A DNA stretch of 31,903 nt from IMG/VR virus record IMGVR_UViG_3300032218_000439, positions 1 through 31,903 of that record. The stretch is one strand, 5' to 3'. Source of the stretch: a virus (lineage: Duplodnaviria; Caudoviricetes). Below the pieces are notes generated by a model. It did no database searches and was not told where the DNA came from. It saw only the letters and a list, made by a program, of their open reading frames with translations. Position 1 is the first letter of the stretch. Every line of letters begins with the position of its first letter. Below, in pieces: positions 5,663 through 31,903 of this stretch. The position numbers and the translations under genes were made by a program.

Positions 5663-6532
5663 TTATGGCCTTAAGAGTGGGGGGATGCCCGCACGACTTA
5701 TTTTACTACCTAATTTACTTGCATTCTGTTTCATAGTCTCTGGACCAATGTCAACGGTTAATGCAGTTTTATATCTAGGATCATTTCTCTCTTTATAACT
5801 AGGGATATAACCACTAGCACTTTCAGGTAAACTTAATCTTTCACTATGTAGAACATCAAGTTTATCATATAATTGTTTAATAATACCTTTACTACGTAAT
5901 GCTTTGAATGCTAGATTCTCAGGACCAAACTCACCGTGTAAATGTAGTCCGTTCTTGCGATATTTTTTAATCTTGTCTATCACAGTTTGTATCTTATTTG
6001 GATCATTGTGCTTTAATGCTACTTTAGCTAAGTCACGCATTTTGTTGAACTTTAACTTAGTTGCCATTTGGTCTAAGTTAGCACGTGATTTCTTAGGTAA
6101 TTTGATCCATTTGTCATGTAGAATGCTGTACTCACCCAAACTGATAACTGGTTCGTTAGCGTCTTGTATGTATAATTCTACTTCATATCCGTTTACAATG
6201 ATATCATGTGTGTCATTGTATAATGTCTTTTTAGCGTGAAACAATTCACGGTAAACTAATTCGTCATTTAATTTGCTCATATCTACTAGGATATGTAAGT
6301 CTATATCACTGTGCTTTGTATAAGTGTAGGCTGCATTACTACCAGATAATGTGATGTCCATTACTTGTATATTGTCAAGACCTAGATGGTCAATAAAGTC
6401 ACCCGCAATTAACAATAATTGCTCTCTTACGTCATCACGCATGGTGTCTCCGGCAAAAACTGCATGATTTAGATCATCATGGAAGTAAATTGCGTCATGG
6501 AGTTTGAAACTGTCTAATTCTTTAAGGTTCAT
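5663..6532 (-). CDS. DNA polymerase beta-superfamily nucleotidyltransferase
   Basis: LSGSNAAYTYTKHSDIDLH fits the hG[GS]x9-13DhDh signature; likely third acidic residue in VELYIQD. Confidence 0.8.
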   Translation of the reverse strand: MNLKELDSFKLHDAIYFHDDLNHAVFAGDTMRDDVREQLLLIAGDFIDHLGLDNIQVMDITLSGSNAAYTYTKHSDIDLHILVDMSKLNDELVYRELFHAKKTLYNDTHDIIVNGYEVELYIQDANEPVISLGEYSILHDKWIKLPKKSRANLDQMATKLKFNKMRDLAKVALKHNDPNKIQTVIDKIKKYRKNGLHLHGEFGPENLAFKALRSKGIIKQLYDKLDVLHSERLSLPESASGYIPSYKERNDPRYKTALTVDIGPETMKQNASKLGSKISRAGIPPLLRP

Positions 6533-7578: not shown

Positions 7579-9342
7579 TTATTCTTCGTCTATATAATCA
7601 AATGATTCGTTTGTATTTGTTTTTTTGGGGCGATTGATACTTACTTTGATAAACTCTTTGTCATCTTGTTTGGGTGACGGTTTGTCTTTATAATTCTGAA
7701 TATCTTGATATTGTTTGATGGCAGATTGTTTGGTTACTTCTTTAACTTCTTCTTCCGCCACACCTTGCTTGACACTTTCACTTTTGTATGTGGCTCCAGT
7801 GCATACCCAAGCAGGGCCTGTGTATCCTTGAGGGAACGCCTTCAAATGCTGAATGGTTCTGTGCCAACCTTCGATTAAATCATAGCCGTTGGACAATTTG
7901 GCAACAATAATTGGTTCTGCACTCACACCCTTTTGCTGTATCATTTGTGATTGCAATGCGTGTCTTTCAGCATCACGCGGTACTTGAAAAGGATTAGAAC
8001 TACCGCCTTCTCTACTGGCAAGCATACGCTGAGTCTTGGGTGTAAAGATATCAAAGGTTATGGGCAGTTTAGTCAGTGTCCATTTACAATCGCCAAAGTC
8101 TTGTTTGTTTCTTTTAAGAAAATCATCTAACTCTGCCTGGTCACGAATGCCCTTGGCTTGTGGATACAAGAAGTCTTTCAACACATAGTCAGGCCAAGTT
8201 GGAAAATGTCGCTTCACAAAGGCAAACAAACTGTCTCTAGCTTCCGTCAAGCCTTCCGCCACACCTTGATTATCTCTATTATCCCAGAACTTTTTTCCTT
8301 TTGGTTTTAGTGTTTTACTAGGAATAATTTTACCAACTAAATCTTCTGCATAGTCATATATTTTAGTAGCAATACCTTGACGACGGAATTGTGGATATAC
8401 GTGAACTATGTCACCCGTCCATGCCCCGTCTATTTTTTTAAATCTTGCGCCACCTACATCTGTTCCATCTGATGTAGCGTGTACATACAACATATCAGGA
8501 GACATACTATGTAATAATTTAATATCGCCGGCGTTAGAGCCTTCCGCCACACCTTGCTGGCTTTCTTTAAGAGCAACCTTCATCAATTTGACAAATTGAA
8601 TTTTCTTTTCTAATGATGCTTCTTTTAATAAAGGTTTTGCTTTGCGAACAATGTCAACTACACTCTCTTTCAGTGCTTTATCTTTGATTTGCTTTACTGC
8701 TTTTTGCTTTGGTTCTTTGACCTTTTTAGGTACGTTTAATCTGCTTTTTGCTCTGTTCATAAATTCTAATACCTCTGCGTCTGATAATGCATCGGGCATA
8801 GCTTCACGCCAGTATGCAAATTGTTCTTCTTCTGTTGCGTTAGGATTCATTAATATCTCACGCATTGGAGTTGCTCTTGGACCTGCTTCACTTTGTGCTG
8901 GGTCATTTACTTGCTGTCGTGAAATTATTTGTAAACTTTCTAAGCCATAGCTTTGATAAGGTACATTACCTGATTTGTCTGGTTTCATTAACCATTGAAA
9001 GGGTTGAACTTGGTCTTCGCCCAACACTAATAATACATTTTTGTATTGTTGACCAACAGACGTTAACACTGATGCTAATGTACTTCCTGCATGAAAAATA
9101 CCAGCATATTGCGGGAACACTTTTTTATATATGAATAGTTTTTCTTCTGGCGTTAATGGATCATCTTTACCCATTGTTTCTGAAACAAAAAAGAAAGGTG
9201 TTGCTTTTAATTCTTGTGCTTGAACTATAACTGCTTGCGCCAACAACATATGACCTTTGTGACCCATGCCACGTCCCCAACCTACCACAGCATCTGCTTG
9301 TGCTTGTTGCAACGCTTCAATGATATATTGTTTTAAACTCAT
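7579..9342 (-). CDS. Multidomain probable head-packaged protein: HIGH-type (cytidylyltransferase/NMNAT-like) NTase + GNAT + ParB/Srx-like domain
   Basis: GWGRGMGHKGH (HxGH), KDDPL, LVLGEDQ and RATPMR in the N-terminal part; VYPQFRRQGIATKIY (GNAT motif A); EPIIVAK..YDLIEGWHR (ParB/Srx). N-terminus MSLKQYIIE|A resembles a T4 capsid-targeting sequence. Confidence 0.75.
   Translation of the reverse strand: MSLKQYIIEALQQAQADAVVGWGRGMGHKGHMLLAQAVIVQAQELKATPFFFVSETMGKDDPLTPEEKLFIYKKVFPQYAGIFHAGSTLASVLTSVGQQYKNVLLVLGEDQVQPFQWLMKPDKSGNVPYQSYGLESLQIISRQQVNDPAQSEAGPRATPMREILMNPNATEEEQFAYWREAMPDALSDAEVLEFMNRAKSRLNVPKKVKEPKQKAVKQIKDKALKESVVDIVRKAKPLLKEASLEKKIQFVKLMKVALKESQQGVAEGSNAGDIKLLHSMSPDMLYVHATSDGTDVGGARFKKIDGAWTGDIVHVYPQFRRQGIATKIYDYAEDLVGKIIPSKTLKPKGKKFWDNRDNQGVAEGLTEARDSLFAFVKRHFPTWPDYVLKDFLYPQAKGIRDQAELDDFLKRNKQDFGDCKWTLTKLPITFDIFTPKTQRMLASREGGSSNPFQVPRDAERHALQSQMIQQKGVSAEPIIVAKLSNGYDLIEGWHRTIQHLKAFPQGYTGPAWVCTGATYKSESVKQGVAEEEVKEVTKQSAIKQYQDIQNYKDKPSPKQDDKEFIKVSINRPKKTNTNESFDYIDEE
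7752..8556 (-). repeat. Three identical in-frame 16-bp direct repeats CAAGGTGTGGCGGAAG (QGVAE)
   Basis: Plus-strand cttccgccacaccttg at 7752-7767, 8253-8268 and 8541-8556; spacings 501 and 288 bp. Confidence 0.95.
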
Positions 9343-10517
9343 ATCTTTTTTGGTGCCCAGTTTTGTTGGTCAATCAACTTTAAAAATTGACCGGGTAATG
9401 GATTGTCAAAGCTAATCTCAGGGTGTGCTTGTACATATCCTTCAGGATTAGTTTGCATAATGCCACCATGCAGTCCTAAACTTAATGATTTAATTAATTG
9501 CATCTTAGCATTAGTTAGTCCTTCAACTGCACCTAGTGTTGCTTCGTAACCTTTTTTATCTGCTAACATACCCTGTGCTTGACCTTCGCTTAGATTAGCT
9601 TGTGCCCATTGTGGAAAGTCTCTGACTAATCCTTGTGTTCTTAAATGACTATTAAGATATGTGTATAATATTCCACCTGGCTTGCTTAAGCCCTTTTTAG
9701 GTGCAAGATAATTGTCAATGATATTAGCGTTACTACTAATAAAATTACCAACTTTGTCAATGTAACTTGTATCAACACCGGGCATTTCTTCTACATAAGT
9801 AGTGCCCTGTACAATAGCATCGGGTGTAGATAAACTTTCTGCATTTGGATATCTACCTTCTTCTGTACTACCCAATTTATCATACCAGCCAGTGGCTGCT
9901 ACCATTAACTTTGCCTTTAACTGTTTAGGTGTACCGATTTGTTTACCTAAATTACTATTTACTGGAATATGAAACCCAGTGATGTTAGGTTTGAAGTCAA
10001 ATGTTTTTGTGTTTTTGTTATAAACAGGCATTGCACTTTGGCCGTCTGGTTTAGTACCGGGATAAAACAACAACCCACCTTCTAAGAATCCTTTTTGTGG
10101 ACTAATCTTTTCAAAGTAAGGCCACATCTGTGCAAACTGTTTTGCAAACTGAACTCTACTTTCATCGTTTGGATCAGCATTTCCTGTACCCATAACAAAA
10201 GCATATATATCATTTGCATTATTCATTAATGTAGGTGCCCCACTACTTGTTTGTGTCTTACCTGACTTCAAGTATGCCCATGCATTCTTTGGAATCATTC
10301 TAAAGACACCTCTTTCGTCACGGCCCCAGTATACGACAGGCATGCCGTCCCATTTTAATTCAATTGAATCATAATTATCAACCATGTGACTCATACGTTC
10401 AACTGCATGTAATCCACCACTACTACCATTTGAAATGACGAGGTCTTCTATGTGTTGGTACTTACGTCCAACACCGGGAGCTGCCGCTTCAAATAATAAT
10501 ACGTCTGATAATTTCAT
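9339..10517 (-). CDS. ATP-dependent ligase-like covalent nucleotidyltransferase (DUF6267-like phage protein)
   Basis: Motif I ELKWDG, motif III-like FLEGGLLF, motif IV PEGYV, motif V FLKL; N-terminal MKLSDVLLFE|A. DUF assignment is from recall. Confidence 0.65.
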   Translation of the reverse strand: MKLSDVLLFEAAAPGVGRKYQHIEDLVISNGSSGGLHAVERMSHMVDNYDSIELKWDGMPVVYWGRDERGVFRMIPKNAWAYLKSGKTQTSSGAPTLMNNANDIYAFVMGTGNADPNDESRVQFAKQFAQMWPYFEKISPQKGFLEGGLLFYPGTKPDGQSAMPVYNKNTKTFDFKPNITGFHIPVNSNLGKQIGTPKQLKAKLMVAATGWYDKLGSTEEGRYPNAESLSTPDAIVQGTTYVEEMPGVDTSYIDKVGNFISSNANIIDNYLAPKKGLSKPGGILYTYLNSHLRTQGLVRDFPQWAQANLSEGQAQGMLADKKGYEATLGAVEGLTNAKMQLIKSLSLGLHGGIMQTNPEGYVQAHPEISFDNPLPGQFLKLIDQQNWAPKKI

Positions 10518-11362
10518 TTTCTGTGTTTTTGTACAAACTGTTCGGCTAGCATTACTAATTCTTGTAATTCTTCTATACTCTCACAATTCCATCTGCGTAG
10601 TGCTAATGCTTTGGGAGTCGGTTTACCGTTAGGTTTTTTCATAGGACCCTTGTTACCGCTCATTCTAGCACAGAAACTTTTACGGCGTTTGGCAGCTTTA
10701 CTTCCTGGTTTTAGTTTACTTGGTTTAGTAGTAACTGCTGTTTGTAATTTGCTGCCTGGATTTTCTCTGCGATATGCTTTTACAGCTTTGCGGCTCATTC
10801 CTGAAGTCTTGTCACGATGATTAACCTTATTCCAGTCTTCTGTCACGCCTTCATCTGTTCCTTTTCTTGAGTCTGGCATATTCATCTGACGATAATCATC
10901 TGGCCAATCAAAAACAATTTCTTCATAGCATTTGTAAACCTTAAGTAATTCTGCCGCCTCAGGATCGTGTTTTGCCGCGTCTATTAGAGTTTCTCCTACA
11001 TCACGTTCATCCCACGCATCTCTATAGTCTTTTGGTCCAAACTCATCCCACGGATCAACATTATCACCAAACCATACTAAAGCATCGTTTACATTTGTAT
11101 ATCCATTTCTTCGAGCCCATTGAGCAAAATGCTCATGGTATGGTTTTCTGTTTTTTCGAGCCCATTGTATCAATTCAGGAATGCTTGTTGGTATCATTTC
11201 TTTGTCAGGGTATTTTGGCTCAGCAGTCATTCTGCTCATCATTGTGTCAAACTTTTGATCGCCTGTTGCCTCCGACATGTTTTTTTTCTTTTTCTTAGCA
11301 ATAGCTATAGCTGCCTGTTGTTTAGGGTTGGCTGCTTCAGTTATAATCTCAGTTATTTTCAT
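10514..11362 (-). CDS. Probable internal head protein with basic C-terminal RRKSFCARM domain (DUF6321-like)
   Basis: N-terminal MKITEIITE|A; C-terminal K/R-rich AKRRKSFCARMSG...ALRRWNC module recalled from T4-like aquatic phages; ATGA overlaps on both sides. Confidence 0.6.
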   Translation of the reverse strand: MKITEIITEAANPKQQAAIAIAKKKKKNMSEATGDQKFDTMMSRMTAEPKYPDKEMIPTSIPELIQWARKNRKPYHEHFAQWARRNGYTNVNDALVWFGDNVDPWDEFGPKDYRDAWDERDVGETLIDAAKHDPEAAELLKVYKCYEEIVFDWPDDYRQMNMPDSRKGTDEGVTEDWNKVNHRDKTSGMSRKAVKAYRRENPGSKLQTAVTTKPSKLKPGSKAAKRRKSFCARMSGNKGPMKKPNGKPTPKALALRRWNCESIEELQELVMLAEQFVQKHRK

Positions 11363-12120
11363 TTTAATATCTCCAACATATTACGAAACCATTCATTTAC
11401 GTTTGGTGTAGCTTGTTGCCAACTACGTCCAGCACGTGCTGAATTCATAATTTCTTCTTTGCGTTTAGGATCAGGTATCTTTGCCATCATAGATTCTACA
11501 CTTCCTAAATCAGCACCTTTTGCACCTCTACCTAATAGATATTGTGCAATAGTATCCCAATCATCACTTAATAATTCGGCTTTTTTACCAGCCGCATCAC
11601 GCTTATACAATCCTTCATCAGGACTCCATAGCATACCCTGTGTACTAGCAAGTGCATTCATAACTAGTTGTTTGTTCACACCCTTATAAGGACTACCTTT
11701 TGGTATATCATGTCTATGATATACTGCAACTTTGTGAGCATTTTTTACAACTTTAATGTCAACTTGATAGAACTTATTATCCATTGGGATTTTAGAATGT
11801 ACAGTTACACCTGCTAATCTTGTTTCAATGTTTTGTTTATTTAAAAAATCTGCCAATGCTCTGCGTGTGTCTGATGCATCTTTTGTTTGAAATTGTTGCA
11901 TTAAAGTAGACAATTCTACCATTGAATCTAAATCATTTGATGGGACAACTTCGCCGTTTGCATTGTAGCGAGGTTTCCAGCAAGAACCAATTACTTCTAC
12001 TGTAACTCCCAATGGTGATAGATATTGTTGCGTTGTATCAGACAGTGGCTTTCCAACAACAGACGGGTCAAAGTTAGTCTCAACGTCTGGCCAAATGTTT
12101 CCACCTTCTAATAAAATCAT
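11359..12120 (-). CDS. Pol-beta-superfamily nucleotidyltransferase, probable head protein
   Basis: VIGS...SNDLD plus third Asp in YQVDIK; starts MILLE|GGN. Confidence 0.65.
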   Translation of the reverse strand: MILLEGGNIWPDVETNFDPSVVGKPLSDTTQQYLSPLGVTVEVIGSCWKPRYNANGEVVPSNDLDSMVELSTLMQQFQTKDASDTRRALADFLNKQNIETRLAGVTVHSKIPMDNKFYQVDIKVVKNAHKVAVYHRHDIPKGSPYKGVNKQLVMNALASTQGMLWSPDEGLYKRDAAGKKAELLSDDWDTIAQYLLGRGAKGADLGSVESMMAKIPDPKRKEEIMNSARAGRSWQQATPNVNEWFRNMLEILK

Positions 12121-13121: not shown

Positions 13122-13826
13122 TTACTCCTGGCGCTTCTCTAGTTTGAATCTGCGCTTAATCATATCACCAAACATCAAAGAAAGTAAAGAATTGGTACTT
13201 TCATCGTCATATTCTATATAATAATGTGCTGAACAATAGTTTATATGCCAGGATTTATAGTGCCCTTTTAGCCAGTGACGTAATGCATCGCTAGGAACTA
13301 TAACTGTTTTAGTATTCTTATATCTGTTTATGAACTCAGACAATTCGTCTTTAAAAGTATCCTTGACCCGCTTACTTTTCAGATAAGCACGATATTTGTG
13401 CTTGGGTTCTTTTACAAAAGTTTTAATACCTGTGGGAGCAATATCAATTATCTCAGTGAAATTGACATGTTCAGGACCTGCAACATTGCGTAGTGTATGC
13501 AACAATGCTAAATCGTTGCTAAAAATACCCGCTGTGCTACCCTCAATTCGCATTGAACAAGTCTTGGACTTTATATGTTTATTCTTCCAATCAATGAAAG
13601 TCTCAATGTCATCTAAATCAATTGCTTGAATACGACTAGAATCATAATATCTTCGGTTAACTTCTAATCTTCTTAGATAGTCCAACATAGTATCAATGCC
13701 ATGCATGTATGCTAATCCGGGGATACTAAATCTAGCACGGTATCTGTACTTGCCGTAGTACAATACGTCCCGATAATCTATTGTATCTATTTCTGGTAAC
13801 TTAGTTGACGACATTAATGAATCCAT
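13122..13826 (-). CDS. Hypothetical protein
   Basis: 234-aa ORF overlapping the clpA stop; start may be 13814. No family recognised. Confidence 0.7.
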   Translation of the reverse strand: MDSLMSSTKLPEIDTIDYRDVLYYGKYRYRARFSIPGLAYMHGIDTMLDYLRRLEVNRRYYDSSRIQAIDLDDIETFIDWKNKHIKSKTCSMRIEGSTAGIFSNDLALLHTLRNVAGPEHVNFTEIIDIAPTGIKTFVKEPKHKYRAYLKSKRVKDTFKDELSEFINRYKNTKTVIVPSDALRHWLKGHYKSWHINYCSAHYYIEYDDESTNSLLSLMFGDMIKRRFKLEKRQE

Positions 13827-16077
13827 TACTATCTACCTCTACATTAATTTTCTGTGCTACATCAAACACAATTTTATCATCTACTAAGTTTGCTGTAACT
13901 GTGCTATTCTTAATCTTCTCAAACAAAATCTTCTTGCTCAATGGTACACGAATCAATTCATCAATCTTACGACTTAGTGGACGTGCGCCCATTTTATTAT
14001 CATATCCATGTTCTGCTAGATACTCAACTACTGGTTCGCTTAAGTTAAGAGTAATGTCATGTACGTTTTTAAGACTTTTCTTCAATTCGTCTGTAAACTT
14101 GATAACAATTTTCTTTATAGCCAATGTGTCTAGTTTGTTGAACTTACAAACCATGTCAATACGATTTCTAAATTCAGGCTTAAAGAACTCTTTCAATGCT
14201 TTATCATCTTCACCTGACTTTTCCTGTGATCCAAAACCAATAACGTTGCGTTCACTATCACTACTGCCCAAGTTACTGGTCATGATAATGATACAGTTTT
14301 TAGCATTGACTTCTTTGCCATTACTACCTGTAACTCGACCTTCATCAAGCAATTGCAAGAATACGTCAAAGACTTCTGGGTGAGCCTTTTCAACTTCATC
14401 AAACAATAATATTGAATATGGATTCTTACTTAAGTCATTGATAAGCTTACCGCCACCTAATTCACCTTCACCAAAGCCAACATATCCTGGGGGCGCACCG
14501 ATGAACTTAGCAATAGCATGTTTCTCGCTGAACTCACTCATGTCATATTTCAACAATGTCATATCTAAGTTTTTACTTAACAATTTAGCTAACTCAGTTT
14601 TACCTGTACCAGTTGGGCCTAAGAACAAGAAGCTACATGTTGGTTTAGTTTCATTACCAATACCCGCAAATGATACATAAACACGCTCAAGTACTTTATC
14701 AACTGTTTCATCTTGACCATATAGTTTGTCTTTGATGTTAGATTCAAGGTTCTTGATGCGGTCATCAGTGACATCACTCATTTTGTCAGCAGGTACACCT
14801 GTATACCGTTCAACTTGTTCGTGTATCAACTCTTTAGTGATTATTGCACCCACGTTTTCAAGCACACGTTGTTTAGCACACGCCGCATCCAACAAGTCAA
14901 TTGATTTGTCTGGATTCTTGCGGTCGTGAATATAGCGAATAGCACATTCTACGCTTGTATTGATTGCTTCGTCACTAATCTCTACACTATGAAAGTCATT
15001 CAATCGCATACTTAAACCTTTAAGAATACGAACTGTGCTTTCTTGACTTGGTTCATCAATAGATACACGATAGAACCGTCGCATCAATGCACGATCCTTT
15101 TCAAATGATTCGTAGAATTCTTCCCATGTTGTGCTTGCAATTACTTTCAATGTGCCCTTAGTAATTGCTGGCTTAATCATGTTAGCAAAGTCAACACCAC
15201 CGCCACTAGCGTTACCTGAACCCTTCATGGTATGTGCTTCGTCAATGAATAGAATAGCTTTGCGTTTAGTATTCAATGCTTGTAGGATGTTTTTAATCTT
15301 TTCTTCAAAGTCACCGCGGTATTTACTACCCGCAAGTAAGTTAGCAACTTCAAGCGAATACAATTCATGATCCTTTAAGAATTCCGGAACAACTTCATCT
15401 ACAATTTGTTGCGCTAGACCTTCAGCAATAGCAGTCTTACCAACACCAGGATCACCAACCATCAACACGTTTGACTTGAATCGTTTAGCTAATACATTGA
15501 CGATATCATCAACTTCTTTACTACGACCAATCATTGGCTCAAGCTTACCGTCTTTAGCTAACTGTGTTAAGTTAGTTGTATATTCTTCTAGTATTTCATC
15601 TGCTTGAGTATCACTTAATGCGGAAGTATAATTACCACCTTTGTAATGTTTCTGCCAAAAGGGTACAAACTCGTTCTTAACAATACCATACTTTAATAAG
15701 AAATAATGTGCATGACTGTTTGTCTCTGCACTGATACTTAAATACAAATCAATAGTTGTAATTGATTTACGACCAGTGAAAAGAACTTGTGTTACACCAC
15801 GATTGATAGTGCGTTCTAAACTGTTAGTTTTTCTGGGTTGAACTTCTTCACCTGGACTAACATTAACTTGAATAGCACGTAAACTATCCAAATATATAGA
15901 AATCTCTTTGGTTAAATTAGTTGTGTCTGCACCAAATTGATCCAGACACTTTTTGAATGGAGGATGATTTACCAACGCTAACAATAAATGCTCTACTGTG
16001 CAATACTGATGCTTGCGTTGTTTAGCAAATTCAATAGCCTGTTCGATAATTGCTTCTATTTCTACTGAACTATGCAT
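13801..16077 (-). CDS. clpA: ClpA-like ATP-dependent Clp protease ATPase subunit
   Basis: Clp N-domain (EHLLLAL), two AAA+ modules (GDPGVGKT/FIDEAH; GPTGTGKT/LFDEVEKAH), IGF ClpP-docking loop, GARPL, no ClpB middle domain. Confidence 0.92.
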   Translation of the reverse strand: MHSSVEIEAIIEQAIEFAKQRKHQYCTVEHLLLALVNHPPFKKCLDQFGADTTNLTKEISIYLDSLRAIQVNVSPGEEVQPRKTNSLERTINRGVTQVLFTGRKSITTIDLYLSISAETNSHAHYFLLKYGIVKNEFVPFWQKHYKGGNYTSALSDTQADEILEEYTTNLTQLAKDGKLEPMIGRSKEVDDIVNVLAKRFKSNVLMVGDPGVGKTAIAEGLAQQIVDEVVPEFLKDHELYSLEVANLLAGSKYRGDFEEKIKNILQALNTKRKAILFIDEAHTMKGSGNASGGGVDFANMIKPAITKGTLKVIASTTWEEFYESFEKDRALMRRFYRVSIDEPSQESTVRILKGLSMRLNDFHSVEISDEAINTSVECAIRYIHDRKNPDKSIDLLDAACAKQRVLENVGAIITKELIHEQVERYTGVPADKMSDVTDDRIKNLESNIKDKLYGQDETVDKVLERVYVSFAGIGNETKPTCSFLFLGPTGTGKTELAKLLSKNLDMTLLKYDMSEFSEKHAIAKFIGAPPGYVGFGEGELGGGKLINDLSKNPYSILLFDEVEKAHPEVFDVFLQLLDEGRVTGSNGKEVNAKNCIIIMTSNLGSSDSERNVIGFGSQEKSGEDDKALKEFFKPEFRNRIDMVCKFNKLDTLAIKKIVIKFTDELKKSLKNVHDITLNLSEPVVEYLAEHGYDNKMGARPLSRKIDELIRVPLSKKILFEKIKNSTVTANLVDDKIVFDVAQKINVEVDSNGFINVVN

Positions 16078-16099
16078 ATTTGTTTCCTTAAAATCTTAT

Positions 16100-16921
16100 T
16101 TACTTGTTTCGAGACTGCAATATAGCATCTAATATTGCGTTATCTATTTTATCAGGAACTATGGGTTTAAGCAAGACATATTGGTCACCTACTGATCCAT
16201 TTACTTGAAAACCCTGCCCGGCTACACGAACTTTGGTATTAGGTTGTGTTTTAGGTTTTACCCCCAAATTGAACTTAGTTCCGGATAATGTAGTAAACTC
16301 AATGTCAGTGCCCACAATTAAATCTAGTACCGAAATGTCTACTTCACTATACAAGTCTAAACCTTCTCGTCTAAACTTCTCGTTAGCATGTACTCTAAAT
16401 TCAATTATTAATACTCCGTCGGGTATCAGATTATCATAGCGCATTTGTCCACCGTTATCTATACCTTTAGGTATATCAACTCTGATAGTTTGATTTCCTG
16501 ATTGCGTTCTAAACTGCAATATTTGTTCACCGCCGGTTAATACTTGTTCTAATGTGATCCAAATTGTAGTTTTATAGGTAGGACGTTGTCTTTGATGTCC
16601 GAACATTGATCCAAACATGTCATGTATGTCCATTCCACTTCTTGGATCAAAATTAAAATTGAATCCTCCACCAAAAGGACTACCTGTAGTAAAGTGAAAT
16701 CCACCGGGTGCGCCATGCACTCCACCAAATGGATTTGGATTGTCGTATTGCTGTTTCTTTTCTGAGTCGCTTAGTGTTTCATAAGCAGTTTGAATTTTTT
16801 GAAACATAGCGGTATCACCACCTTTGTCAGGGTGATGTTGATTCGCTAGTTTGCGATATGCTCTTTTGATATCTTCGGGGGTAGCATTTCTGTCTACCCC
16901 TAGGGTTTGATAATGTTCCAT
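16100..16921 (-). CDS. dnaJ: Class B J-domain co-chaperone (DnaJ/CbpA-like)
   Basis: J domain with HPD, G/F-rich linker, C-terminal substrate domain, no zinc finger. Confidence 0.92.
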   Translation of the reverse strand: MEHYQTLGVDRNATPEDIKRAYRKLANQHHPDKGGDTAMFQKIQTAYETLSDSEKKQQYDNPNPFGGVHGAPGGFHFTTGSPFGGGFNFNFDPRSGMDIHDMFGSMFGHQRQRPTYKTTIWITLEQVLTGGEQILQFRTQSGNQTIRVDIPKGIDNGGQMRYDNLIPDGVLIIEFRVHANEKFRREGLDLYSEVDISVLDLIVGTDIEFTTLSGTKFNLGVKPKTQPNTKVRVAGQGFQVNGSVGDQYVLLKPIVPDKIDNAILDAILQSRNK

Positions 16922-19487: not shown

Positions 19488-20264
19488 TTGAGCAAAAGAA
19501 AAACTGGTGCTCTCCGACAGGAGCAAGAAGCTAGAACGTCATATTCTAAAAAACAAGAAAACACATACTACACACAGGAATCAAAAACAATCAACTTTAA
19601 CTCGTCAAAACCTAAATCAACAAACAAGCATATAGAACTAATACCCAAATCACTCAATCAGGAAAAATACATCTTAGCATTACTAAATCCAGAAACGGAT
19701 ATAGTAGTGGTCAGCGGTCCTGCGGGTACTGGTAAAACTTATCTAGCTATGCAAGCGGCGATTAAGGCTATGAAAGCTGGAGAATGTGAACGGATTATTC
19801 TGACACGTCCTGCAGTGGGTGTAGATGATGAAAAGCATGGGTTTTTACCAGGAGATTTAAACGCTAAAATGGAGCCATGGACTCGTCCGTTGCTTGATGT
19901 ATTGCGTGAATACTACACAGCAAAAGAAATTCAGTACATGTTGGAAGAACAAGTAATTGAAATTGCCCCACTTGCATTTTGTAGAGGTCGCAACTTCAAA
20001 AGAAGTTATGTAGTGTTAGATGAAGCTCAAAATTGTACACCTAGTCAACTCAAAATGATTATGACTAGAATCGGCATTGGCAGTAAGATTGTAGTTACTG
20101 GCGATATTGAACAAGCCGACAGAAAATCAGCCGACAACGGGCTACTAGACCTACAAAATCGTTTGGGGAAGGGGGTGATACCAGGTTTGCAGTTATGCAA
20201 GTTTGAACTGAAAGACGTTCAACGACACCAAATTATTGAACATATTTTGGGTCTATATCAGTAA
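19488..20264 (+). CDS. phoH: PhoH-family ATPase
   Basis: GPAGTGKT, LTRPAV, GFLPGD, RGR, DEAQN, TGD motifs; AGGAG SD before TTG start. Confidence 0.95.
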   Translation: MSKRKTGALRQEQEARTSYSKKQENTYYTQESKTINFNSSKPKSTNKHIELIPKSLNQEKYILALLNPETDIVVVSGPAGTGKTYLAMQAAIKAMKAGECERIILTRPAVGVDDEKHGFLPGDLNAKMEPWTRPLLDVLREYYTAKEIQYMLEEQVIEIAPLAFCRGRNFKRSYVVLDEAQNCTPSQLKMIMTRIGIGSKIVVTGDIEQADRKSADNGLLDLQNRLGKGVIPGLQLCKFELKDVQRHQIIEHILGLYQ

Positions 20265-20553
20265 CCTGGTCATCCGAGTCAGAGGGGGAGAGTACTTCCC
20301 CTCTCCAGCCATTCTCTTCGGACAATCTATCTACAATAGCAGGATATACACCCTTGTAATATGCATACAAATTATCCCAATCAGTATCTACTCGTTGTCC
20401 ATCAATAATGCATTTGTTAACTTTACGTTCCTGAAAGTCCATAATTATATTGACTGTTTGAAGGTCAGAATTTTTGATTTTCTTCCCCAAACCAACCATC
20501 TCATCAATTTTACCGTCAGGTTTCTTTACGTAAGTTACTAAAAGATATCTCAT
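20233..20553 (-). CDS. Hypothetical protein
   Basis: 106 aa, ATGA-coupled to clamp loader; overlaps the phoH 3' end by 32 bp. Confidence 0.7.
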   Translation of the reverse strand: MRYLLVTYVKKPDGKIDEMVGLGKKIKNSDLQTVNIIMDFQERKVNKCIIDGQRVDTDWDNLYAYYKGVYPAIVDRLSEENGWRGEVLSPSDSDDQVTDIDPKYVQ

Positions 20554-21473
20554 GTTGTTAATTCTGCTAATGTTGCTGCCAAACTAATTTCAGGAATGCC
20601 AACCATTGATAGATTGACTAAGCCATTACGAATCACAATGATTGCTTGGTCTTTTTGTTCTGGAGTCTTGCCCCACAAGTCTAAGTTATTATACATCCAA
20701 CGATACGTATCTTCAATACGTGTAGGATACAATGCTAAATGTTGTAACAATTGCTGACGACCTTCAATTACTTTACCACTCTTAAACAAACTAGTGGCTT
20801 CAAGCAATAATTCATCTTCGCTATTACCTATACTTACTGGTGGTAGTAATGTTCCTGTACTGCTGTTAACTTGAACTTGATTTAAGCACTTACGCAAGTC
20901 TGGATATGTGGCACGGACATAACTATCTAGTGTATCCAAATCAAATTGAACGTTTTCAGTAACCAATACGGTTGCCGCCCTTGCAGTAAACTCTGTCATA
21001 TCAGTTTTAGTGATATGGAATTCGTGACAACGACTCTTAAGTGCAGGGATAATCTTGTGCTGATAGTTACAAGTTAGAATATAACGAACTGTACCCGCGT
21101 AAGCTTCCATGTCATTACGCAATGCCGCTTGTGCTGCCGCTGTAAGATAATCTGCCTCATCTAATAGAACGACTTTGAAGTTACCAAAAGGCATTGTTTG
21201 TACAAAGCCATTGATTTTATCACGCATATTGTCAATGCCGTTTTCACGTGACGCATTAATTTCTAACACATCGTATTCTTGCACATCCAATTGATGTATC
21301 AATACTTTTGCAAGTGTTGTCTTTCCTGTACCGGGATCGCCGCTTAACAATAGATGCGGGATAGTACCAGAACTAATCCAACCCTCTACTTGTTGCTTTT
21401 GTCGTGCGTCAACAAAAACATATTCTTCTACTGTTGTAGGGCGATACTTTTCTACCCAAAGATTGTTCTTCAT
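20550..21473 (-). CDS. Sliding clamp loader ATPase subunit (T4 gp44/RFC-small-like)
   Basis: WVEKYRP, GDPGTGKTT, EINAS, LLDEAD, SRC motifs. Confidence 0.92.
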   Translation of the reverse strand: MKNNLWVEKYRPTTVEEYVFVDARQKQQVEGWISSGTIPHLLLSGDPGTGKTTLAKVLIHQLDVQEYDVLEINASRENGIDNMRDKINGFVQTMPFGNFKVVLLDEADYLTAAAQAALRNDMEAYAGTVRYILTCNYQHKIIPALKSRCHEFHITKTDMTEFTARAATVLVTENVQFDLDTLDSYVRATYPDLRKCLNQVQVNSSTGTLLPPVSIGNSEDELLLEATSLFKSGKVIEGRQQLLQHLALYPTRIEDTYRWMYNNLDLWGKTPEQKDQAIIVIRNGLVNLSMVGIPEISLAATLAELTT

Positions 21474-21808
21474 CGTTTCAATGCTTCGTAAGTGATAATG
21501 TGATTAAGTGATTCGCCCAAGTCTTTTTCATGGGGTACGATATGCAATGAGTTTTTCATTCTGTCTGATTTTTCATCATAGTGACGCAATTCAACTACAT
21601 GCCCGCCATTAGCAGGATATAAATTGAAGCAAGTGCCACGACTTTCTAACTCACCAGATGAATCATGTCTTACTGGATTAAGACGAACATTGTTTTGTCT
21701 TTTACTACCAGTAATAGCAAGATTGGGTCCGTCATCATAATCTTTCTCTTGCGGAGTGTTGTTTGCCCAGCGAACCTTCTTTAAAAACCATTTATCAAAC
21801 CATTTCAT
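21470..21808 (-). CDS. Hypothetical protein
   Basis: 112 aa, tightly packed between groES and the clamp loader. Confidence 0.7.
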   Translation of the reverse strand: MKWFDKWFLKKVRWANNTPQEKDYDDGPNLAITGSKRQNNVRLNPVRHDSSGELESRGTCFNLYPANGGHVVELRHYDEKSDRMKNSLHIVPHEKDLGESLNHIITYEALKR

Positions 21809-21809
21809 A

Positions 21810-22172
21810 TTAGTATACCTTATCGCTCATTGTATCATCATTGGGAAGTTCATCACTAACTAATAGGATATCGTTAGGATCAACTTTACGAATTGTTTTC
21901 TTACCTGTTTCATCTTCAATATCAATACCTCTAGTCCATCGTCCATGACTGATTAGTATCCATTCACCCACTTTAACGTCAGTTTGCTCTGGGCCAACAG
22001 CATAGACTTGTGCCCATCGTGGTCTAATACCTGAACTCTTACCATCATCACCTGGAATAATAATTCCACTTGATGTAATACGTGATTCAAAACTCATATC
22101 GGTAACAATGATTGCGTTACCGATAGGTTTTACTGCTTTAACTTGATGTGCTTCAAATGCTAATTTACTCAT
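21810..22172 (-). CDS. groES: Co-chaperonin GroES (Cpn10)
   Basis: VKPIG, TSSGIIIP mobile loop, VYAVGP, VKVGE, DIL; no groEL in the window. Confidence 0.88.
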   Translation of the reverse strand: MSKLAFEAHQVKAVKPIGNAIIVTDMSFESRITSSGIIIPGDDGKSSGIRPRWAQVYAVGPEQTDVKVGEWILISHGRWTRGIDIEDETGKKTIRKVDPNDILLVSDELPNDDTMSDKVY

Positions 22173-29827: not shown

Positions 29828-31903
29828 TTAGATTCCGCTTAGTTTTCTAAAATCTGACAACAAATCTGTGCTGTCTTTCATTAATGTACCTTCTAGTGTA
29901 ACTTTTATTACAGGGACAGTAGATTGGTCATGCTTTTGACGATTCAAACCACCGCTTATAGTTTTCATCATATACTCTAAGTCTTGGTCTGCTGTATCGT
30001 CAGCACTGTTAGCATAGCTTTCATCTACTGGGTGCTCACATCCACATGATTCCATTGGGTAACCGCATTCGTTACATGAATCGTGACCTTCTTCAATACT
30101 GCTTGTATCAGTATATTCTTTGCCACCTATGCTGAATTTTTCACCGTGTGGTGTATCTTTTAACTTTTCAGTGAAATTATTACCTTCATCTACATCGTCA
30201 CCGCCAGTATCAAGTCTGCGAGGATCTCTTTTTGAAAATTCTGAAGAACTTTGTCCAGCTCCGGCATCGGATGTAGTTGGGGGTGGAGCAGTTGGAGTTG
30301 GAGTTGGATTTTTCTTTTTATCACCATATCCAGCCATGTCCGCAGCCTGGTTTACAGCACTACCAATACCGTTTAAGGCTACCAATCCAGCTCCTGTACT
30401 AATTAATGCTTTTTGGTGTGGAGTATAACCTGACCCTTTATTATGTGATACTACTTTACCTTCATCTACTTCTTCATCACAATCACATGGGCTTTCTCCG
30501 CATTCTTCACAATCACCTTCTTCATGGTCGTGACCTTCTTCCTCTTCATAGTCTTGAGAACCGTGTTCTCCGCTATTTTCAATGCCAGTCATCTTTTGAA
30601 TCAATGACATCATATCATCACCGCCTTCGTCACCCATTTCACTATGTGCTTGAGGACTACCAACTGCAATTAATTGTGCTTCTGGACCAGAATGTTCATC
30701 ATTTGACATTGGAAGACCGTAGTTGTTAACTTGTTGACCATGCTCTTGTTTAGCACCACCCATACCACCTAGACCTGCGTTACGCAATAGTTCAATGATT
30801 TCATGTGCATTACCTTCAGTAGCACTTACATTAACACTGTCATGACCTTGGTCATCAATTGTTGTGCTGATTGTAAGATTTTCATTAATCAATTCGTTTA
30901 ATGTACTTTTCCAAGTTTCAACTTGCATATCTTTCATATTTTTTCCTTCAAATGCTCTACGTGAGCTTGCTAAGTTTCTGATAAAGCTTCCTGCTTCTTT
31001 AACACCTTCAGGATCAGATACTGCAGGTTTAAATGTTTTAGAATTGTCCGGTACTAATGGTTTGTAATCATCTTTACCCCATCCTGGGCTTGCTGTACGT
31101 GCTGCCGGTGCAGGTGTATTTGGATTAACTACAGGAGGATTAACTGAACCGCGACCCGCACCTGCGCCTTCATCAACTGTACCCTGACCTAGATAATGAT
31201 GGAATGCTGTAACAACTTCACCTAAGAAATCTGGGTCATGGTTTAATTTGTAATGTGCAGACTTAGGTGTCATGCCCATTTGAATCATTTCGTGATATAC
31301 TGCATTAGCAAACTCATCAGAGTCAGAAGCCAATGTAGGATTCTCTTGTGCTAAAGTCTTACCAACTTTCTCGTAAGTATATTCGCTTTCTTCCATTACA
31401 CGTGCTTCAGAAACTTTCTTTTTCTTACGCAATGCTTCAAAGTCAGCCTTTGTTAGTTTACCTTTTGGTTCTGCAACATCTAAGTTGTCTTGCTTGCCCG
31501 GTAAATCTTTTGTCTCTTTAACTTTCTTAGCAAGTGGATTCTTTTTCTTGAAGGACGGATAAGGTGCTGTCTGCGTGAATGCATTGGAGGTTTTAGCTGG
31601 CTCTTTCTTGTCGCCAATGGCTTTTTTCATTGGCTCTTCTTTGTCACCATCAATTTCTGATTCATTAATCATGTTATCGGAAACAACTTCCATCCAATCT
31701 TTTAGGCTATGCTTAACAGACTTCTTACCTACTTCACCTTTTGCTTTGCTACCCAACATGCCTTGTAAGCCTGATGTGTCAAACTTAGTATCATTACCGT
31801 GTTCGTCTTTATCACCTTTTGTTGGGCGACCACGACCACGCTTTGGTGCATCTTTTTTAGCTTCAGAGCCTTTATCAACTTTGCCAATCTTATGTCCATA
31901 TTG
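29828..31903 (-). CDS. Large acidic head-internal/prohead core-type protein, partial (begins beyond right edge)
   Basis: The frame stays open for 48 more codons upstream of the track's Met at 31759 (QYGHKIG...KRGRGRP...GLQG); many hydrophobic-x-E|G/S/A sites, two Cys clusters, ends FRKLSGI. Confidence 0.7.
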   Translation of the reverse strand, partial: QYGHKIGKVDKGSEAKKDAPKRGRGRPTKGDKDEHGNDTKFDTSGLQGMLGSKAKGEVGKKSVKHSLKDWMEVVSDNMINESEIDGDKEEPMKKAIGDKKEPAKTSNAFTQTAPYPSFKKKNPLAKKVKETKDLPGKQDNLDVAEPKGKLTKADFEALRKKKKVSEARVMEESEYTYEKVGKTLAQENPTLASDSDEFANAVYHEMIQMGMTPKSAHYKLNHDPDFLGEVVTAFHHYLGQGTVDEGAGAGRGSVNPPVVNPNTPAPAARTASPGWGKDDYKPLVPDNSKTFKPAVSDPEGVKEAGSFIRNLASSRRAFEGKNMKDMQVETWKSTLNELINENLTISTTIDDQGHDSVNVSATEGNAHEIIELLRNAGLGGMGGAKQEHGQQVNNYGLPMSNDEHSGPEAQLIAVGSPQAHSEMGDEGGDDMMSLIQKMTGIENSGEHGSQDYEEEEGHDHEEGDCEECGESPCDCDEEVDEGKVVSHNKGSGYTPHQKALISTGAGLVALNGIGSAVNQAADMAGYGDKKKNPTPTPTAPPPTTSDAGAGQSSSEFSKRDPRRLDTGGDDVDEGNNFTEKLKDTPHGEKFSIGGKEYTDTSSIEEGHDSCNECGYPMESCGCEHPVDESYANSADDTADQDLEYMMKTISGGLNRQKHDQSTVPVIKVTLEGTLMKDSTDLLSDFRKLSGI

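Follow-up and report, generated by a model that had tools for sequence, protein, structure and literature searches.

The window analysed here, a stretch of 31,903 nt, is a 32-kb fragment of a jumbo phage. Pseudomonas phage PA5oct has a clamp loader 51% identical to the one encoded here, and the surrounding gene order agrees; the ClpA, DnaJ, PhoH, clamp loader and GroES-like genes at 13801-16921 and 19488-22172 lie in the order seen in PA5oct. The gene of interest is a minus-strand ORF of 587 aa (7579..9342), which is built from a targeting-like start, a nucleotidyltransferase, two cassettes and a 57-aa tail. The N-terminal 9 residues, ending in I-I-E (9316..9342, minus strand), are predicted from their sequence to be a capsid-targeting-like propeptide. 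Residues 9-247 (8602..9318, minus strand) form an HxGH-type cytidylyltransferase-like domain matching the PHROG cytidyltransferase family phrog_3041 (E 4.3e-21), in agreement with an earlier note on this DNA, which had read a HIGH-type NTase at the N-terminus. The C-terminal tail (7579..7752, minus strand) is retained in 5/5 close orthologues.

The sequence CAAGGTGTGGCGGAAG, called the joint below, occurs as three exact minus-strand copies in this gene: copy 1 at 8541-8556, copy 2 at 8253-8268 and copy 3 at 7752-7767. All 3 are in frame and read QGVAE, followed by G in copies 1 and 2 (QGVAE/G, the slash marking the predicted cut) and by E in copy 3 (QGVAE/E), and they are spaced 96 and 167 codons apart. 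The window holds no other match at up to 3 mismatches, and shuffled sequence gave a mean of 0.07 matches and never reached three, so the three exact in-frame 16-mers reported in the earlier note are borne out. The pairwise identity of 18-19 bp given there holds for two pairs (19 and 18 bp) and not for the third, which has 16 bp. The identity at synonymous positions does go beyond chance, as had been claimed: under the window's codon use, in which GTG makes up 9% of Val and GCG 7% of Ala, three QGVAE copies would share all five codons with p=0.0018.

The first cassette (8254..8541, minus strand; 96 codons, Glu to Glu) is the GNAT module it was taken for, matching PF00583 at E 5e-6, above the family cut-off. 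Copies of it in other proteins are 70-98% identical, and 22 rows show 14 upstream and 16 downstream contexts. The second cassette (7753..8253, minus strand) has the proposed 167 codons; its assignment as a ParB/Srx-like module is supported by homologues and predicted fold. It has no Pfam match itself, but several of its near-identical homologues match PF02195. Modelling from an alignment of 62 sequences reached a pLDDT of 91 (a single-sequence fold, at pLDDT 49, was unusable), and the model's top Foldseek matches in both structure libraries are sulfiredoxin (Srx)/ParB chains, all of them weak, with 0 at E<=0.001. A PDB sequence search with the alignment returned no match, and neither did a search among cultured phages. 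With a G+C content of 44%, this cassette exceeds the N-terminal domain (37%), as an import from a higher-G+C relative would.

Other genes of the window touch on the same subject. The modular ORF at 10514-11362 (minus strand) has a degenerate joint with 4 mismatches, EGVTE/D (10837..10852, minus strand), before its DUF6321 module, and DUF6321 recurs as the terminal module of many joint-bearing proteins. Three neighbouring genes at 9339-12120 (minus strand) also begin with short hydrophobic-x-Glu peptides, which suggests a cluster of head-internal proteins. The 643-aa product of the gene at 29828-31759 (minus strand) is acidic, of low complexity and rich in hydrophobic-x-Glu sites, and may be a prohead core protein; its relatives L005 and L011 bear joints.

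Cassettes gained, lost and exchanged at the joint

Single-domain cassettes are gained, lost and exchanged among many genes at the joint. A comparison of N-terminal-domain relatives (the best 80 of 243) showed that orthologues at 98-99% N-terminal identity differ exactly between joint copies. L135 (98% identical) lacks exactly the GNAT cassette, its homology breaking at joint copy 1 and beginning again at copy 2. L134 (99%) has an unrelated 126-aa cassette between joints and L133 (99%) and L136 (87%) have a 62-aa cassette there; homology to L133 and L134 breaks at copy 1, and homology to L133, L134 and L136 picks up again at copy 3. L137 (85%) has no joint. DNA homology ends and restarts at joints in every close pair examined. 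The expectation that cassettes are added or lost exactly at the repeat, and that alignment of the orthologues would find domain content varying there and not constant, is thus borne out by the L133-L136 breakpoints. The GNAT cassette is precisely absent in L135; no circular (go-back) or tandem cassette junctions were seen in 8 runs, all of them contigs, which drop rare forms. A contig of run X6 has 163 other bases in place of both cassettes (shorter side 208 letters), and run X5 has a precise 288-bp skip, which is weak, its shorter side being only 26 letters. In 35 of the 48 complete distinct orthologues among the best 80 of 243 there is no joint and the C-terminal modules still vary, so the joint is the most visible and not the sole route of module change.

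The exchange extends well beyond this gene. Across all phage loci, 311/329 neighbouring joint spacings below 1.5 kb are in frame and open, and the 311 in-frame cassettes fall into 239 families, 196 of them single in this small sample. Nearly all close cassette families (29/30) occur in more than one context. When 145 cassettes, the longer representatives, were scanned, 17 had a Pfam match; because 128/145 have none, the description of cassettes as "effector" domains is mostly unproven. The ParB/Srx-like cassette is joined to 38 N-terminal families among 74 proteins and has 65 different downstream contexts (counted in the best 120 of 203 longer proteins, 74 of which have a usable N-terminus). 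It is 89% identical in DNA over 516 bp to a copy in the unrelated gene L002, with the homology beginning at joint copy 2, and copies in different genes have diverged by 2-28%. The cassettes at L065:1601-2392, L086:452-886 and L549:318-779 open with a match to a twin-arginine-like signal (PF10518), which would be odd in head cargo.

The ParB/Srx-like domain is also found as stand-alone genes of 157-175 aa. Among 74 short stand-alone forms, drawn from the best 120 of 190 found, 69 have a hydrophobic-x-Glu motif within residues 2-14 and 2 have the linker. The L-T-E just past joint 2 lines up, in matching register, with the point where the targeting-like start of these genes ends, and the G-L-T-E at 8242..8253 (minus strand), a second hydrophobic-x-Glu, is likely a remnant of a stand-alone gene's start. 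A quick midpoint-rooted tree of 201 rows places all 103 cassette forms in one branch (support 99) together with 18 stand-alone genes, leaves 52 stand-alone genes outside, and has branches near zero among cassette copies; distant cassette forms such as L044 are missing from it because the sample was ranked by similarity to the window. From this we infer that the ParB/Srx cassettes were captured from stand-alone genes and then spread rapidly.

The joint is not special to the 587-aa gene and spans many genes and phages. An exact scan of 6/64 parts of viral contigs extrapolates to about 1,400 viral stretches carrying the 16-mer, and among the matches listed the QGVAE frame is the longest frame in 169/174 distinct contexts. 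The holders are mostly freshwater metagenomes, with no RNA holder among those listed, and the phages carrying the joint are uncultured freshwater T4-type jumbo phages from lakes. Each joint-bearing genome has the joint in 2-4 ORFs; G006, a near-complete relative, has zero, and the 4 nearest cultured phages have one 2-mismatch match in total. Bacterial genomes contain an 18-letter form of the joint in 72 stretches, as single copies save for one 3-copy contig, and no multi-copy host pool was found among them. A 9-kb contig in a Bacteroidetes bin (L435, CAILDT010000116.1) has three joint copies and may be a binned phage contig or a hint of the host.

The conservation lies in the DNA, as the earlier note had held, and not just in the peptide. 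In a scan that left the third letters of Val and Ala free, GTG-GCG was found in 82/154 distinct matches, where codon use at joint loci has GTG at 21% of Val and GCG at 9% of Ala. The codons GGT GTG GCG GAR are kept in 20/24 EGVAE copies and the joint codons in 10/13 KGVAE copies, all of them copies that the exact scan could not select. Sequence conservation around the joint is confined to about positions -2 to +18. The joint is common to genomes of 37%, 45% and 47% G+C, and the proteins shared by low- and high-G+C joint-bearing genomes have a median identity of 45-48%; over such distances a letter-perfect joint is hard to get from drift and general recombination alone.

Two features of the related genomes were noted along the way. 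The 524-kb record G001 (L213-L240) is a fusion, its first 172 kb being a related phage in reverse orientation and the remainder a roughly 350-kb genome. Six or more radical SAM genes are clustered at 285-306 kb of G001 (L228-L229) and at 50-60 kb of G002, a cluster that is common to joint-bearing genomes and has no match in G006.

A predicted protease site in the joint

The V-A-E of the joint is predicted to be cut by a gp21-type prohead protease, and the indirect support for this is strong. An S77 protease (PF03420) is present in 4/5 related genomes, and the relative G001 has a gp23 capsid and a gp20 portal; none of the three lies in the window fragment. Allowing up to 3 mismatches gives 659 joint copies, of which 650 have Glu at P1 and 656 a hydrophobic P3 (V/M/L/I), while P5 is changed in 139, P4 in 46 and P2 in 38. 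In T4, gp21 cleaves after L/I-X-E and the internal proteins have a 10-residue targeting peptide (PMC9026906), and the SPN3US protease motif is A-X-E (PMC5694885); the joint has Val at P3, unlike either, which counts against the prediction. A hydrophobic-x-Glu motif lies within residues 2-14 in 41/63 joint-bearing ORFs, compared with 36/228 ORFs of the related genome G001. The 22/63 joint-bearing ORFs that have no N-terminal motif count against the overall reading favoured below.

The strongest test of the protease reading comes from modules that follow a joint in some proteins and stand in joint-free contexts in others. In these joint-free contexts a hydrophobic-x-Glu occurs in the register of the joint in 203/395 cases, where 8 are expected and the next highest offset has 48. 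One such case lies in the window, in the Pol-beta-type nucleotidyltransferase gene at 5663-6532 (minus strand), which is in the joint-free state: it has L-P-E (5822..5830, minus strand) where L033 and L044 carry QGVAE before the same last module. Orthologues of this gene have 275-1100 extra residues before that module, 275-500 in L033 and L044.

Route of exchange and rival explanations

Taken together, we estimate a probability of roughly 0.6 that the shared in-frame joint serves cassette exchange, likely through short-homology recombination by general machinery, and that its V-A-E is cut by a gp21-type protease. The cassettes would have begun as small stand-alone internal-protein genes, each with a targeting peptide ending in hydrophobic-x-Glu and one domain, and the joint would have replaced the natural hydrophobic-x-Glu sites. 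A domain with a joint on both sides could then move, during co-infection, into any joint-bearing gene, where it would keep the frame, use the recipient gene's targeting peptide and still be released, the gp21-type protease freeing each domain as a separate protein inside the maturing head. Since trade with the common pool would be limited to matching copies, the joint sequence would remain constant. By analogy with T4 IPI and IPIII, the domains may act after injection against host defences or metabolism.

Linkage to the flanks narrows the exchange only to positions 2-16 of the joint. Copies paired by a common upstream flank match as far as position 1, those paired by a common downstream flank match from position 17 on, and variant letters within 2-16 are rarely common to a pair (9/149 and 9/163 pair-positions, the pairs not being independent). 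A tyrosine recombinase (PF00589), a serine recombinase (PF00239), a reverse transcriptase (PF00078) and an IS110 transposase (PF02371) were each found in 0/5 related genomes, 3 of which are at least 90% complete. When 270 ORFs (110-1300 aa) from the 172-524 kb part of G001, the closest near-complete relative, were scanned against Pfam, no recombinase came up, and comparison of four joint-bearing genomes with the joint-free G006 left about 55 shared ORFs with no obvious recombinase candidate. RecA/UvsX is present in 4/5 related genomes, and gp32, gp46/47-like proteins, a helicase and endonuclease VII are present in one. Amplifications and deletions in T4 occur at microhomologies of 6-10 bp (PMC9391042), and exchange at the PeSL elements of T4-type phages needs no identified recombinase (PMC2839356). 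Short-homology recombination is therefore favoured. RecA prefers TGG-rich DNA (PMC3763553), which might explain the codon choice of the joint. The three joint copies have no common fold or dyad (0 to -4.5 kcal/mol), and the perfect match between the two joints of a cassette ranges over 4-25 bp with a median of 15, giving ragged edges. A two-tier G-quadruplex of four GG runs was considered and rejected, since just 63% of copies have the fourth run and joint 3, a place of past exchange, lacks it. Fresher joints were predicted around recently moved cassettes and were not found (70 vs 238 cassettes, p=0.13).

A tentative alternative, which we consider possible and rather unlikely, keeps the same cassette and protease system and makes the joint the target of a dedicated recombinase, either unrecognised by Pfam or supplied by the host. 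In its fullest and equally doubtful form, the phages' own unrecognised enzyme would read a non-palindromic 16-bp site that also spells the protease site, and a guild of jumbo phages would trade hundreds of injected domains. Such an enzyme would fit a joint that is identical across genomes of 37-47% G+C at about 46% protein identity, recombinant pairs that almost never share variants in 2-16, and joint decay that shows no age effect; many ORFs common to joint-bearing genomes and missing in G006 are also unannotated. It is opposed by the absence of all four enzyme families from the 5 related genomes and of any recombinase among the 270 ORFs, by the ragged edges and the missing dyad or conserved fold, and by the lack of circular or tandem junctions in contigs and of a multi-copy pool in bacterial genomes. 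An unlikely reading is that the joint is a recombination site only and QGVAE a flexible linker in uncut proteins of the polyvalent type, perhaps not in the virion at all. The 22/63 host ORFs with no N-terminal motif and the Val at P3, a departure from the T4 consensus, would agree with this, but the register test (203/395 vs 8) does not, and P1 and P3 resist change where P5, P4 and P2 tolerate it, the motif starts the stand-alone forms, and the protease gene is present.

It is very improbable that the peptide alone matters, with identical codons left over from recent copying and domains recombining at arbitrary micro-homologies. Joint-free orthologues do vary their modules too, beside other hydrophobic-x-Glu sites, and the near-zero branches of the tree indicate that the ParB cassette radiated recently. 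However, the same rare codons stand beside 239 unrelated cassette families across differing codon use, and DNA homology stops at the joint in every close pair examined; this reading is already largely refuted. Least probable of all, to the point of being nearly dismissed, is that the differing architectures are assembly chimeras formed at a short repeat. All of the data come from metagenome assemblies, one related record (G001) does fuse two related phages, and contig breaks often fall near joints. Against this, assembly words are usually longer than a 16-19 bp match, architectures recur across records (eight 650-aa proteins; the 62-aa form in both L133 and L136), cassette copies in different genes differ by those 2-28%, and the GNAT and ParB parts are independently covered in different runs.

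Under the favoured reading, exchange at the joint by general recombination with predicted release by the prohead protease, the joint is a natural standard for domain shuffling: the frame is preserved, the place of exchange is marked and the product is probably released. It also shows how internal-protein genes of a single domain could have grown into modular polyproteins. Searching with the joint as a tag recovers a large set of probable injected proteins (239 families from 311 cassettes in a small sample); most have no Pfam match, and new counter-defence functions may be sought among them. It is directly testable whether a 16-mer can be kept constant at about 46% protein identity by general recombination alone.

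Comparison with known systems

Integrons are arrays of single-function cassettes with a recurring site between them and a very large pool. The cassettes here share the arrays, the recurring site and the large pool, but the domains lie within one ORF, no IntI-type recombinase was found (PF00589 0/5), and the joint has no attC-like hairpin or conserved flank. The earlier note's term "integron-like" describes the arrangement and does not carry over to the mechanism, given the 0/5 recombinase count and the missing attC-like features.

In polymorphic toxins the boundary motif is also a processing site. The CdiA-CT and Rhs-CT systems resemble the present one in that a conserved coding motif bounds an exchangeable domain, but they have one C-terminal domain and an immunity gene, swapped from silent orphan modules (PMC3150448, PMC3967940). 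The cassettes here are several, internal and in open frame (311/329) in many host genes; no immunity genes were seen, and the neighbours in the window are not small immunity genes. Polyvalent proteins are likewise variable and multidomain with GNAT and ParB domains, and injection and proteolytic release have been proposed for them, with processing ascribed to an internal metallopeptidase (PMC5512222); a check of that text for the words linker, direct repeat and shuffling found none of them. No description of the joint was found in the accessible portions of the polyvalent-protein and jumbo-phage papers, and none of its peptide, DNA motif or concept in a search of the main texts of open-access literature.

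The closest likenesses are to two T4-type systems. The PeSL cassettes of RB49 and phi1, the elements of the T-even IP locus and Botstein-type linkers are short conserved stretches of DNA where accessory modules enter, drop out or are exchanged (PMC2839356). Modules are gained and lost at a conserved element in both the PeSL and the joint system, and no dedicated recombinase has been identified in either. Mini-circles have been demonstrated for PeSLs, and a PeSL is an intergenic promoter and stem-loop that moves whole genes (PMC2839356), whereas the joint, a coding 16-mer read in frame and lacking a promoter or hairpin, moves domains and is a predicted protease site. T4 IPI-III and Alt share with the present proteins a short N-terminal peptide ending in hydrophobic-x-Glu, an S77 protease in the genome (here in relatives) and highly variable small cargo domains (PMC9026906, PMC3012670, PMC7411985). 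The T4 internal proteins have one domain per gene and are known to be packaged and cut; the present ORFs each string together many domains separated by a fixed DNA joint, and the single targeting-like peptide that heads the whole chain is read from sequence. The joint system is not a PeSL, an integron or a polymorphic toxin locus, and by analogy it appears to combine modular exchange of the PeSL or linker kind with processing as in T4 internal proteins.
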